Below, piece by piece: positions 6,574 to 10,378 of a DNA stretch of 64,000 nt (positions within the stretch are counted from its first letter, which is position 1; each line of letters starts with the position of its first letter). The position numbers were made by a program, and so were the translations under genes. The notes below the pieces were generated by a model that worked only from the letters and a program-made list of their open reading frames with translations, did no database searches and was not told the origin of the DNA. This DNA is from Promethearchaeota archaeon. GTDB taxonomy: Archaea; Asgardarchaeota; Lokiarchaeia; Sigyniarchaeales; SOKP01. The stretch is taken from contig JAEOUA010000001.1 in NCBI GenBank assembly GCA_016839555.1, forward strand, positions 64,001-128,000, given 5' to 3'.

Positions 6574-7116
6574 ATGAGCAGTAAAGACGATAAAAAGGGC
6601 TATGTGTTTAAAATAACGGTGATAGGTGATGGTGCCGTTGGAAAAACCTCTCTCATTAAGAAATACACACAAGGTTCATTTCAAAAAGATTATATTAAAA
6701 CACTAGGAGCTCAATTCAGTAAATATGATGAGGAAATAGAGGGAGAGAATTGCAAACTTTTCTTTTGGGACATTGCTGGGCAAGATCAATGGAAATTCAT
6801 GAGGCCCACGTTCTATAAAGGCAGTAAAGCAGCAATAATCGTATTTTCGCATACAAATCCAGAGAGTTTTGACAATGTGCCAAAATGGCATGAAGATATC
6901 AAAAAATACTGCGGAGACATTCCCATTGTATTATTCGGGAACAAGCTTGATTTAGTTGATGAAAAAGATTTAAATGATAAAAAAGTCCAAAAATTGGTGA
7001 AAAAAAGGGAATTTTTAGCATATATGAAGACCTCAGCCAAAACAGGTACAGGAGTATATCAAGGCTTTCAAAAAATAATCAGAGAATTGCATTCGAAATA
7101 TAAACTAAGAGAATAA
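6574..7116 (+). CDS. Rab/Ras-like small GTPase
   Basis: G1 GDGAVGKT, G2 YIKTLG, G3 WDIAGQ, G4 NKLD, G5 TSAK. No C-terminal prenylation cysteines. Confidence 0.95.
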   Translation: MSSKDDKKGYVFKITVIGDGAVGKTSLIKKYTQGSFQKDYIKTLGAQFSKYDEEIEGENCKLFFWDIAGQDQWKFMRPTFYKGSKAAIIVFSHTNPESFDNVPKWHEDIKKYCGDIPIVLFGNKLDLVDEKDLNDKKVQKLVKKREFLAYMKTSAKTGTGVYQGFQKIIRELHSKYKLRE

Positions 7117-7124
7117 GTATATGA

Positions 7125-7433
7125 ATGATAGAGAATAACGAAAATAAGCAAGGGAATCCCAAAATTTTATTCTTTTCATCAAAATATTGTATGCCATGTA
7201 AACCTGTAGAAGATCGCTTAAAAAAAATTAATATTTCAATGTTTGGGAAAAAGTTAAATATAGAAAAGATTAACATCAACGAAGATATGAATCGAGAAAA
7301 AATAAATACTTATAAGATCACTTCTGTTCCCACGATAATTGTTGGGGGAAGAAAATTGATGGTAAATATTGATGATACGGATATAATAGATGCAATTTTA
7401 CAAGCATATGTTGATTCAGTAAAAATTGAATGA
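7125..7433 (+). CDS. Thioredoxin/glutaredoxin-like protein (CMPC)
   Basis: FFSSKYCMPC CxxC motif and cis-Pro motif ITSVPTIIV. Confidence 0.85.
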   Translation: MIENNENKQGNPKILFFSSKYCMPCKPVEDRLKKINISMFGKKLNIEKININEDMNREKINTYKITSVPTIIVGGRKLMVNIDDTDIIDAILQAYVDSVKIE

Positions 7434-7520
7434 AGATAATTCTGCATTAAAAATATTTTAAATATAAAAAAGGAATAAATTACAACCTAAATAGGAGATG
7501 GGAAAAAAATTAATAGACAA

Positions 7521-7988
7521 TTGTTATCGGAAATATTATCGGAAATGAAAAAGAATTTAAAAAAGGGAGTTTCAATAGGAGATTTAAAGGCGAGTGCCCT
7601 TTTTGCGCTTGGGCAACAGTTGGATGCAATCTTCTACTACCTTGGTCATGAACTTGGCAATATTATAAATGTAAAACCGACTGAAGATGAAAGTCAAATT
7701 ACCGAACAATTAAAGCATATAATCGCTGAATATAATATTGGAGATGTTGAAATCACCAAAAGTACGGAAGAAATTATTGAATTAAAGTTGCGAAATCATT
7801 CTTCCATTAGGGATTTGATTAATAAGGGAATTAAATCTGAATCAAGTTTCTGTTCGTTTGAAGCGGGAATGCTTGCGGGTATTGTAGAAAAAATGAGTGA
7901 TTTTCATTGCTTTGCTCAAGAACTAAATTGCAGTCTCCAATCGGGAGATGACTTCTGTGAATTTATGATCGTCTTTCAAAAAGAATAA
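7521..7988 (+). CDS. V4R (4-vinyl reductase/Bet3-like) domain protein
   Basis: IFYYLGHELG and FCSFEAGMLAGIVEK..AQELNC..GDDFCEF give the V4R Cys/Glu pattern. Confidence 0.85.
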   Translation: MLSEILSEMKKNLKKGVSIGDLKASALFALGQQLDAIFYYLGHELGNIINVKPTEDESQITEQLKHIIAEYNIGDVEITKSTEEIIELKLRNHSSIRDLINKGIKSESSFCSFEAGMLAGIVEKMSDFHCFAQELNCSLQSGDDFCEFMIVFQKE

Positions 7989-8077
7989 AAATGAATAATT
8001 TTTTAAATTTCTAAATTATTAAATTAATATCTTTATTTACATTAAATTCGAATATAATAATTAAGTGAAAAATACAT

Positions 8078-8593
8078 ATGGTGTATAAATGTAAAATTGT
8101 TTTACTTGGCGAAGCAGCTGTGGGCAAAACATCCTTAGTATATCGATTCGTGCAAGATACCTTCCGAGAATCATATAAAAGTACGTTAGGTGTCAATCTA
8201 TTAAAAAAAGATTTAGATATTGACAACTATGGAGATACTTCAGCACAGATCTGGGATTTAGGAGGGCAAGAATCCTTCAAGAGCTTGCGTCAATTATATT
8301 TGGAGGGCGCTAATGGTGCGTTAGTGATTTATGACGTTACAAACAGAAAATCATTCGAGAAATTAGATGAATGGATAACTAGTTTTCGAGAGACAAGAGG
8401 AGATGAGCCGCTCCTTTTAATAGGTAATAAAATAGATTTACAGAAGAGAATTCAAATTGCCGAAAAGGAAGGCAAAGAATATGCCGAGAAAAACAATCTA
8501 TCTTTTCTCATAACCTCGGCTAAAACGGGGGATGCAGTGAAGACTGCTTTTAGAGAATTAATTAAACAAATTTTAGATCGTCTCACTAAGTAA
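8078..8593 (+). CDS. Rab-like small GTPase
   Basis: GEAAVGKTS, YKSTLG, IWDLGGQESF, YLEGANGALVIYDVT, GNKID, TSAKTG. Confidence 0.95.
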   Translation: MVYKCKIVLLGEAAVGKTSLVYRFVQDTFRESYKSTLGVNLLKKDLDIDNYGDTSAQIWDLGGQESFKSLRQLYLEGANGALVIYDVTNRKSFEKLDEWITSFRETRGDEPLLLIGNKIDLQKRIQIAEKEGKEYAEKNNLSFLITSAKTGDAVKTAFRELIKQILDRLTK

Positions 8594-8830: not shown

Positions 8831-9190
8831 TTAATCTTTTTTAATTTCATTTTTTTGACATATCGCTTTAAAAGATTCTAGATACTCTTGATAAAGCTCA
8901 TTAATCAAGCTAGAATCTTTAGCTTTTCTAAATGCCATAAGAAATAATTGGTTTAAAGATTTTTTACTATTTTCCCCATAAATATCCCCTTTTAATCCGA
9001 TTAGATCCGAATATTGCTCTAACCAATTATTTAAAATTAATCTATTCTCATTTTTTAAATCTAAATTATTTAATAACCCATAAATACGCAGAATTAAAGG
9101 TGCCTTATATTTTATTTCAAGACTATCCTTTGTTTGATATTCTTTTAAATTCTTTTTATGAGGGATATGATGTGATAAAAAGGCAGGCAT
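8831..9190 (-). CDS. Hypothetical protein
   Basis: 119-aa ORF with host-like composition and no recognised motif. Confidence 0.6.
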   Translation of the reverse strand: MPAFLSHHIPHKKNLKEYQTKDSLEIKYKAPLILRIYGLLNNLDLKNENRLILNNWLEQYSDLIGLKGDIYGENSKKSLNQLFLMAFRKAKDSSLINELYQEYLESFKAICQKNEIKKD

Positions 9191-9742: not shown

Positions 9743-10378
9743 TTAGAATCTTAATTGATAAAAGTTTTTTTCTTTATTAAAAACAATAAGTTTTTTCTTT
9801 TGGAGCTTATCTAGTATTTTATTGAGCCATTTTTCTGATACATCAAATTTCGTAACTAATTTTTCAAAAGATAAAGGCTCACTAATAGCAAATAGGAACA
9901 ATAATCTACTTTCTAAGTTTAAAATGTCCGATTTTATAACTCTTTTGAATTTCTCTTCCAAATTATATAATTTTACTTTCTCCTTGGCAAGATCATTGCT
10001 CAGCTTAGAGATCACCTCATCTCTGGTTTTAAATACATCCAAACTAAAATCATAAATACGTTTCAACTGCTCTTTTAATTCTTCGCCTTCCTGTCCAGCC
10101 TCTATTTCCTTATTAAATTCATCAATTACGGTAATGTAATCAGCTCCATCATCATATTTATCAAGTACAAGTAATATAATTAACTCTTTTTCCTCATTAT
10201 AAAATGATATAGAATTCCAGTTTTTTTCCTCTGTAATTATATAACTTTGAGAAAAATTATGACTTATCTCTATTTGTTGGACGGTATTCTCAGGGATTAT
10301 TAAATCATCGGGATATTTTATTCGAATTTTAGCACCCTCAACTATATCAAATTCTACTAAAGCAACCCCCTTTACCAA
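9743..10378 (-). CDS. uDENN/longin-like N-terminal domain + coiled coil + C-terminal winged-helix-like protein
   Basis: VALVEFDIVEGAKIRIKYP resembles the uDENN/NPRL2 first hairpin. Central heptad region. C-terminal LSFEKLVTKFDVSEKWLNKILDKLQKKKLI looks like a wHTH. GGTGAG RBS before a TTG start. Confidence 0.6.
   Translation of the reverse strand: MVKGVALVEFDIVEGAKIRIKYPDDLIIPENTVQQIEISHNFSQSYIITEEKNWNSISFYNEEKELIILLVLDKYDDGADYITVIDEFNKEIEAGQEGEELKEQLKRIYDFSLDVFKTRDEVISKLSNDLAKEKVKLYNLEEKFKRVIKSDILNLESRLLFLFAISEPLSFEKLVTKFDVSEKWLNKILDKLQKKKLIVFNKEKNFYQLRF

Follow-up and report, generated by a model that had tools for sequence, protein, structure and literature searches.

Results

A conserved GTPase-thioredoxin-V4R unit

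We analysed a stretch of 64,000 nucleotides from a Promethearchaeota archaeon (assembly GCA_016839555.1, contig JAEOUA010000001.1, positions 64,001 to 128,000; called the window below, with all positions given in its own numbering) and found that three of its neighboring genes, encoding a Rab-like small GTPase (GTPase 1), a thioredoxin with a CxPC active site and a V4R-fold protein of 155–159 amino acids (aa), are a conserved, lineage-specific unit of one Loki-type order. With a probability of roughly 45%, we read this unit as a module in which a thiol- or ligand-gated V4R sensor is coupled to GTPase 1 and the thioredoxin acts together with them. A second Rab-like GTPase (GTPase 2) is encoded downstream and is linked to the unit more loosely.

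As the initial annotation had it, four co-oriented open reading frames (ORFs) lie on the forward strand at 6574–7116 (GTPase 1, 180 aa), 7125–7433 (thioredoxin, 102 aa), 7521–7988 (V4R protein, 155 aa from TTG 7521) and 8078–8593 (GTPase 2, 171 aa), separated by gaps of 8, 87 and 89 bp. The start of the V4R gene probably has to be moved. Its orthologues start four codons upstream of TTG 7521, with M-[ND]-R-x-L-L, and all 13 orthologues examined have ATG at this place; the window codon there is ATT 7509, which sits 11 nt after a GGAG. The V4R gene is probably 7509–7988, with a gap of 75 bp to the thioredoxin gene, and TTG 7521 is the alternative start (cysteines of the V4R protein are counted from TTG 7521 in what follows).

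The V4R protein

The window's genome has one copy of the V4R gene. The best curated match of its product is the C-terminal V4R half of the NCBIfam family MsvR (NF053755, E 8e-11), a match that covers profile positions 117–236 of 236 only and reaches 42.1 bits against a cut-off of 220. Pfam reports DUF2507 and V4R (PF02830), both below their cut-offs (for PF02830, 22.8 bits, or 24.4 bits in the genome search, against a gathering cut-off of 31), and the Pfam TRAPP family (PF04051) is absent among the matches of the protein at E <= 0.01. In sequence and PDB profile searches for solved structures, only MJ1460 was found (E 3e-4 in the sequence search).

An AlphaFold model built from 27 orthologues has a mean predicted local distance difference test score (pLDDT) of 90.7, and Foldseek and VIA-align concur in placing it in the V4R/Bet3 superfamily. 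The best structural matches are the V4R sensor domains of PoxR, MopR and DmpR (VIA-align Z 14.0–14.8, root-mean-square deviation (rmsd) 3.0–3.4, 126–128 residues aligned), followed by MJ1460 (Z 13.8–14.0, with 31–32% identity over 102–104 residues). The protein also has the Bet3 fold, with scores below those of the V4R sensors: Z 10.4–12.5 to Bet3/TRAPPC3, Trs33 and other eukaryotic TRAPP subunits, and Z 10.8–11.5 to Thorarchaeota TRAPPC3 (7YH2, 7YH3). It stops right after the last strand, and the model shows no C-terminal extension.

A profile search of 1.84 billion representatives returned four full-length clusters of this V4R family, the other strong matches being fragments; below these the scores fall to 58 bits, and the nearest outsiders include MsvR-like proteins. 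One MsvR-like protein, P0172, which itself matches NF053755 along its whole length but with 89 bits stays under the cut-off, aligns with the V4R protein by hhalign at 97.7% probability. Three of the four cysteines of the V4R protein, C111, C137 and C146, align with the three cysteines of P0172, at spacings of 26 and 9 in the V4R protein and 26 and 8 in P0172; the fourth is C130. Among 32 orthologues, every one has C111 and 30 have all four cysteines; in the member from family f3 (see below), C130 is replaced by a cysteine two positions after C137. H43, E44 and the motif FCSFEAG are also invariant. A truncated metagenome protein of 201 aa (P0160), in which a bacterial-type ElbB glyoxalase is joined to the N-terminus of a V4R-family protein, was not accepted as a fusion; it is a probable assembly chimera, because the record is truncated and the match to ElbB does not end where the V4R part begins.

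The thioredoxin and GTPase 1

The thioredoxin (active site CMPC in the window) matches Pfam PF00085 with 29.2 bits (cut-off 23.5) and falls short of the canonical thioredoxin equivalog NCBIfam TIGR01068 (33.9 bits, cut-off 96.8). All 32 orthologues keep C22-x-P-C25 and P69, which judged by its position is the cis-proline. Of the six proteins in the window's genome that match PF00085, the cassette thioredoxin scores lowest, and the same genome also encodes three ordinary thioredoxins with better scores. A profile made from the orthologues scores the cassette's own copy at 146 bits and the next best protein of the genome at 30 bits, and in five outgroup genomes (families f4, f6 and f7) it found no stand-out thioredoxin, the best matches there reaching 32–47 bits. 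With an orthologous group of its own and ordinary thioredoxins elsewhere in the genome, the cassette thioredoxin is thus a dedicated, extra one.

GTPase 1 matches the Ras family (Pfam PF00071) with 159.6 bits (cut-off 21.6, E 6e-47), and its nearest solved relatives are Rab23, Rab43 and Rab1A. The Ras-family motifs (GxxxxGK[ST], the switch-I Thr, DxxGQ, NKxD and SAK) are present in both GTPases; 32 orthologues of GTPase 1 all keep motifs G1–G5 and the catalytic Gln unchanged. The C-terminal cysteine on which prenylation of a eukaryotic Rab proper depends is missing: GTPase 1 ends in ...SKYKLRE, GTPase 2 in ...LDRLTK, and their orthologues lack a terminal cysteine as well. Each genome, that of the window included, has 27–29 Ras-family paralogues, and among these the cassette neighbor is always the same GTPase 1 orthologue (52–58% identical in each of four f2 genomes, where paralogues reach at most 44%). 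The layout is therefore not due to chance, because the same orthologues adjoin the same thioredoxin and V4R genes in relatives. When the five outgroup genomes were searched with the orthologue profile, no GTPase 1 stood out; the paralogues formed an unbroken series of scores that reached 179 bits.

Conservation, rearrangement and lineage range

The V4R gene was found in 35 of 41 relatives, and in relatives with the same layout the V4R protein is only 36–47% identical by tblastn. Across a sample of 400 genomes of the phylum, the V4R family is confined to one order, being present in 124 of 134 genomes of family f1, 14 of 14 of f2, the single genome of f3 and none of the four of f4; elsewhere in the sample there are weak generic V4R matches only (E 1e-6 to 1e-9). 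Orthologues are on record in both cultured Loki-type species (WP_147663616.1 in MK-D1 and NEF87_005024 in L. ossiferum).

We surveyed 62 loci from 62 genomes of three families (f1, f2 and f3) of this order. The thioredoxin gene adjoins the V4R gene in 60 of them, and GTPase 1 stands beside the thioredoxin and V4R genes in 58. Of the four loci that lack GTPase 1, three (L008, L043 and L027) are cut off by the end of a contig, and the fourth, in genome G010, is a real rearrangement, in which an 894-aa ORF precedes V4R and the GTPase 1-thioredoxin pair lies at the end of another contig. Internal order and surroundings vary too: the gene order in f3 is GTPase 1-V4R-thioredoxin, GTPase 1 is inverted in one f2 genome with the trio still together, and the flanks around the trio differ in genera g14 (L056) and g17 (L058 and L066). 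Synteny across Asgard genomes, which the initial annotation had proposed as a check, thus holds as far as linkage is concerned, but within one order.

Transcription units

Oligo-T runs serve as a termination signal in archaea. Across 54 loci, runs of five or more T are found in four of the GTPase 1-thioredoxin gaps, in three of the thioredoxin-V4R gaps and in 36 of the 120-nt stretches after V4R, a contrast that is indicative and not exact, as the stretches compared differ somewhat in length. In the window, a T6 run at 7999–8004 (+), directly after the V4R stop, is a candidate archaeal terminator of a GTPase 1-thioredoxin-V4R transcript. Because of this pattern and the 8-bp gap between GTPase 1 and thioredoxin, the arrangement fits a trio on one transcript, with GTPase 2 on a separate one.

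GTPase 2 and the genes travelling with it

GTPase 2 (8078–8593, +) matches Pfam PF00071 with 169.9 bits (cut-off 21.6, E 4e-50) and has the Thorarchaeota Rab 7EZB as its nearest solved relative. It is 32–33% identical to GTPase 1, and its motifs G1–G5 are invariant in 26 orthologues. Its orthologue is 52–55% identical in four f2 genomes, where paralogues reach at most 45%. Of 48 f1 loci, 46 have GTPase 2 after V4R, 15 of them with the gene inverted, and the remaining two break off at a contig end. In f2, four loci have GTPase 2 immediately upstream of GTPase 1, and a fifth has it at a distance of 3 kb on that side. In G032 it is some 9 kb distant, and in G030 it is on another contig. GTPase 2 is therefore a distinct, linked orthologue, but a movable one. 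Of the redox-sensing relay of two GTPases suggested by the initial annotation, one half is borne out, since GTPase 2 is a genuine orthologue that stays linked; against a relay speak its changing position and strand and a transcript that is probably separate.

Other small genes are found around GTPase 2. A helical protein of 119 aa (8831–9190, −), which matches no Pfam or NCBIfam family, travels with GTPase 2 in family f1 and is encoded beside or near it in 11 of 16 long f1 loci; in L070 its gene lies between V4R and an inverted GTPase 2, and its membership in the module is uncertain. In genera g9, g4 and g5, a protein of 104–136 aa whose N-terminus carries a multi-CxxC zinc finger and whose C-terminus has two membrane helices is encoded between V4R and GTPase 2 (L073:8521-8910, L074:7471-7881 and L077:8654-8968); a search of the window's genome with this membrane zinc-finger query gave no match. 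A TATA-binding-protein gene with an acidic N-terminal extension adjoins GTPase 2 in L072:7176-7838 (G019, g2), where it lies between V4R and GTPase 2, and in L090:4262-4909 (G010, g5).

A longin-winged-helix gene nearby

Downstream of the V4R gene, at 9743–10378 on the opposite strand (1.8 kb away), lies a gene for a 211-aa protein without a match to any Pfam or NCBIfam family. Its model (pLDDT 81.9) runs beta-beta-alpha-beta-beta-beta-alpha, then a long helix in a predicted coiled coil, then a winged helix-turn-helix (wHTH). The first part resembles a Lokiarchaeal longin domain (VIA-align Z 11.6, rmsd 2.6, 118 aligned) and VAMP7, NPRL2, synbindin, Ykt6, DENND1B, FLCN and Fuzzy (Z 9.1–11.0), and the wHTH part gives Z 8.7–8.9; Foldseek on the whole model is weak (E 3e-3 to 4e-2). 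The protein is thus predicted to pair a fold of GTPase platforms with a DNA-binding fold, which is unusual.

The longin-wHTH gene is on the V4R contig, 0.3–8.2 kb away, in 25 of the 35 V4R-bearing relatives. Most f2 genomes have it directly adjoining V4R in convergent orientation, and it is clearly elsewhere in G025, G026 and G030. It is single-copy and conserved across families f1–f4, of which f4 lacks the trio, and it is divergent from a row of genes for a GIY-YIG protein, a 272-aa protein and CDC48, with which it has a common intergenic region. Its product may be a partner, a fifth component or an output of the cassette.

Stop-containing inserts in cassette genes of relatives

In five relatives the V4R gene carries a stop-containing insert, of 39 nt in G281, G278, G255 and G267 (L086–L089) and of 30 nt in G010 (L019), in all five after the codon for A29. 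GTPase 1 of G020 (L009:522-1082) carries a 30-nt stop-containing insert inside WDI|AGQ. In the folds of the V4R inserts the two exon flanks form a helix that encloses an inner hairpin; in that of G020 the outer helix is formed by the 5' exon paired with the 3' junction. When drawn by hand with the known cutting rule for bulge-helix-bulge (BHB) structures, the junctions resemble relaxed BHB motifs, and cuts in the two bulges would take out 39 or 30 nt precisely, which would bring back the conserved reading. The hand-drawn structures are 8–10 kcal/mol worse than the minimum-free-energy folds, in part because the outer helix of L086 was misregistered and the outer exon-exon helix of L019 and L009 omitted, so that the difference does not speak for or against the motif. 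We regard these inserts as candidate tRNA-type (BHB) mini-introns in Lokiarchaeal protein genes. Protein-gene introns of BHB type are described for cbf5 in Crenarchaeota (PMC2738675), and there is no mention of mRNA in the available portion of a 2026 preprint on tRNA introns of Asgard archaea.

In G018 (about L007:2637-2670, −), a 29-nt insert splits GTPase 1 between ...EEFN and FMRPTFY. Its length is not a multiple of three and it has no clear BHB fold; another intron shape, a frameshift or an assembly error are possible. Apparent stops inside GTPase paralogues of G038, G030 and G166 are not inserts: the alignment of L099 (G038) overruns the natural stop, and L100 and L101 have neither an insert nor an internal stop.

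Discussion

The proposed module and its closest precedent

Under the reading we favor, GTPase 1, the CxPC thioredoxin and the MsvR-type V4R protein would be made from one transcript and would act together. The V4R protein would be the sensor, with a cysteine cluster, probably a Zn/thiol site, that changes state upon oxidation and is reset by the co-encoded thioredoxin, and the state of the sensor would be passed to GTPase 1, with the V4R protein as its regulator or its effector. GTPase 2 would have a transcript to itself and be a second, looser partner. Redox sensing, reduction by the thioredoxin and any contact between the V4R protein and a GTPase are the parts that we infer.

That the thioredoxin would act on the V4R cysteines was part of the initial annotation, and for this MsvR offers a direct precedent. 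MsvR of Methanosarcina acetivorans (MaMsvR) has conserved V4R cysteines C206, C232 and C240, at spacings of 26 and 8, and its C206A mutant has lost the redox dependence of DNA binding, as described in PMC3729527; the thioredoxin system of M. acetivorans re-reduces oxidised MsvR, as described in PMC7278568. The three conserved cysteines of MsvR are matched by C111, C137 and C146 at similar spacing. Unlike MsvR, the V4R protein is 155–159 aa long without a DNA-binding domain at its N-terminus and has a fourth cysteine (C130), the cassette encodes a thioredoxin in the same unit, and the presumed output is a small GTPase in a predicted co-transcript and not DNA binding.

PoxR, MopR and DmpR, which are the best structural matches, are only 11–16% identical, are fused to AAA+ transcription activators and have no thioredoxin or GTPase partner. 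MJ1460 (2OSD, 2OSO) is, like our V4R protein, a stand-alone archaeal V4R protein and has cysteines at the C137 and C146 positions, but lacks counterparts of C111 and C130; we know of no GTPase or thioredoxin context for it. The initial annotation knew of no characterised system with this layout, which agrees with our literature searches (V4R/COG1719, Asgard, GTPase, thioredoxin and the orthologue identifiers): no description of the unit was found in the available portions of the sources, PMC12962969 included. Tran et al. analysed two proteins of MK-D1 (WP_147663132.1 and WP_147661794.1, PMC10933270); judged by accession numbers alone, the MK-D1 orthologue of our V4R protein differs from both.

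Several observations weigh against a sensor of this kind. The cysteines are not kept everywhere: a divergent f2 orthologue (L064) keeps C111 alone, with a neighboring thioredoxin that retains CGPC although the V4R protein there has lost three cysteines, and a related cluster representative (P0151) keeps two cysteines only. The four cysteines of Thor-TRAPPC3 hold a structural Zn (PMC10933270), and such a site need not be redox-active. The partners also occur apart, as G012, a genome 96% complete, keeps the GTPase 1-thioredoxin pair with no V4R match, and GTPase-1-like paralogues of 55–60% identity occur without either partner. Fused V4R forms were not found among 8000 candidates scored with the V4R profile, which is weak evidence. 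In 16 long f1 loci, moreover, the whole region is syntenic, with arginyl-tRNA synthetase (ArgRS), an arginase-fold gene, a deoxyhypusine-synthase-like gene and CinA upstream of the cassette, and the 119-aa protein, an acylphosphatase, the 211-aa protein, GIY-YIG, the 272-aa protein and CDC48 downstream; the last four of these also follow V4R in 7 of 12 f2/f3 loci.

Alternatives

Region-wide synteny means that conservation within f1 is partly inherited gene order, and the genes may have no physical coupling at all, being together by inheritance, or co-regulated at most, in a region that is slow to rearrange. We consider this unlikely. The unrelated CDC48, GIY-YIG and ArgRS genes are syntenic around the cassette just as the trio is, with 27–29 Ras-family genes per genome GTPases will adjoin many things, and GTPase genes of MK-D1 are generally not in operons with roadblock, longin or TRAPPC3 genes, as far as PMC10933270 reports. 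The case for selection comes from the rearranged loci and the shared lineage restriction: the trio persists where both flanks have changed (L056 in g14, L058 and L066 in g17, and L063 in f3) and through internal reordering, GTPase 2 switched sides yet stayed adjacent, and all three genes of the trio are lineage-specific, without an orthologue in the outgroup genomes searched. The terminator pattern likewise points to one transcript.

The V4R cavity may instead bind a small hydrophobic molecule, with cysteines that hold a purely structural zinc and a thioredoxin that has another client. PoxR and MopR bind phenols, and Bet3 binds palmitate. The best structural matches of the V4R protein are such phenol-sensor domains, and the invariant H43, E44 and FCSFEAG could line a putative pocket. 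Asgard TRAPP/V4R proteins probably bind ligands according to Tran et al. 2024, with a Zn site that tethers sheet to helix, and in PoxR Zn is bound in the same region, at a site similar to that of Thor-TRAPPC3 (PMC10933270). We hold a pure ligand sensor to be improbable: it would leave unexplained why 60 of 62 loci keep a dedicated, divergent thioredoxin beside V4R, and the nearest match among curated sequence families is MsvR, which senses redox state and not phenols.

The initial annotation had proposed that the V4R protein, by its kinship in fold with TRAPP subunits, may be a guanine nucleotide exchange factor (GEF) or an adaptor for one or both GTPases. In a wider form, a Bet3-fold V4R protein, perhaps together with the longin protein, would be an exchange factor or a platform for GTPase activation (GAP platform) for one or both Rab-like GTPases, and the thioredoxin would maintain its Zn/Cys site. 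The protein does have the superfamily fold and a size (about 155 aa) similar to those of Bet3/TRAPPC3 and Thor-TRAPPC3, with the Z scores given above, and 25 of 35 relatives have a longin-domain gene close by, which adjoins V4R directly in most f2 genomes. The match to V4R sensors is nevertheless stronger, Pfam TRAPP is not matched, and the C-terminal tail by which Bet3 reaches Rab has no counterpart in a protein that ends at its last strand. The longin protein, encoded on the opposite strand, also has a coiled coil and a wHTH; its gene has a divergent promoter region in common with GIY-YIG/CDC48 and occurs in f4 too, where the trio is missing. We know of no archaeal TRAPP or V4R member with a demonstrated GEF role. 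TRAPP cores combine longin and Bet3-type subunits, which would suit the presence of a longin gene, but it is the longin pair that holds Rab (PMC10933270). A GEF of TRAPP type is thus not supported, and we judge the wider form quite improbable.

Very unlikely in our opinion is a core made of the thioredoxin-GTPase pair, with a thioredoxin that acts on or with GTPase 1 and V4R as an accessory: the junction of the two genes is the tightest (8 bp in the window), at least 90% of GTPase 1 orthologues keep Cys113, and both G012 and the CGPC thioredoxin beside L064 would suit it, but Cys113 is replaced in 3 of 32 orthologues, V4R sits between GTPase 1 and thioredoxin in f3, and G012 is one draft genome.

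Beyond the sensor module that we favor, a larger circuit of five parts built from TRAPP-core folds can be drawn, in which the V4R thiol sensor and the longin protein would jointly regulate two Rab-like GTPases, the thioredoxin would reset the sensor, and through its winged helix the longin protein would turn the state of the GTPases into transcription of the CDC48 operon. We regard it as a long shot; if true, it would be a prokaryotic forerunner of the longin/Bet3 regulators of GTPases, working in gene control and not in membrane traffic.

Significance

Asgard archaea carry dozens of eukaryote-like small GTPases, and we know of almost none with a known partner. Genome layout has been said not to help in matching Asgard GTPases to their regulators (PMC10933270). 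The trio is an exception, as one defined GTPase orthologue is paired with a sensor-fold protein and a redox enzyme, which makes it a rare, testable clue to the wiring of these GTPases, and bench tests are feasible because the unit is on record in both cultured Loki-type species. If the coupling is true, a prokaryote would have a small GTPase that acts downstream of a sensor for thiols or ligands, and it would show whether Rab-like GTPases and the Bet3/V4R fold had come together before there were eukaryotes.

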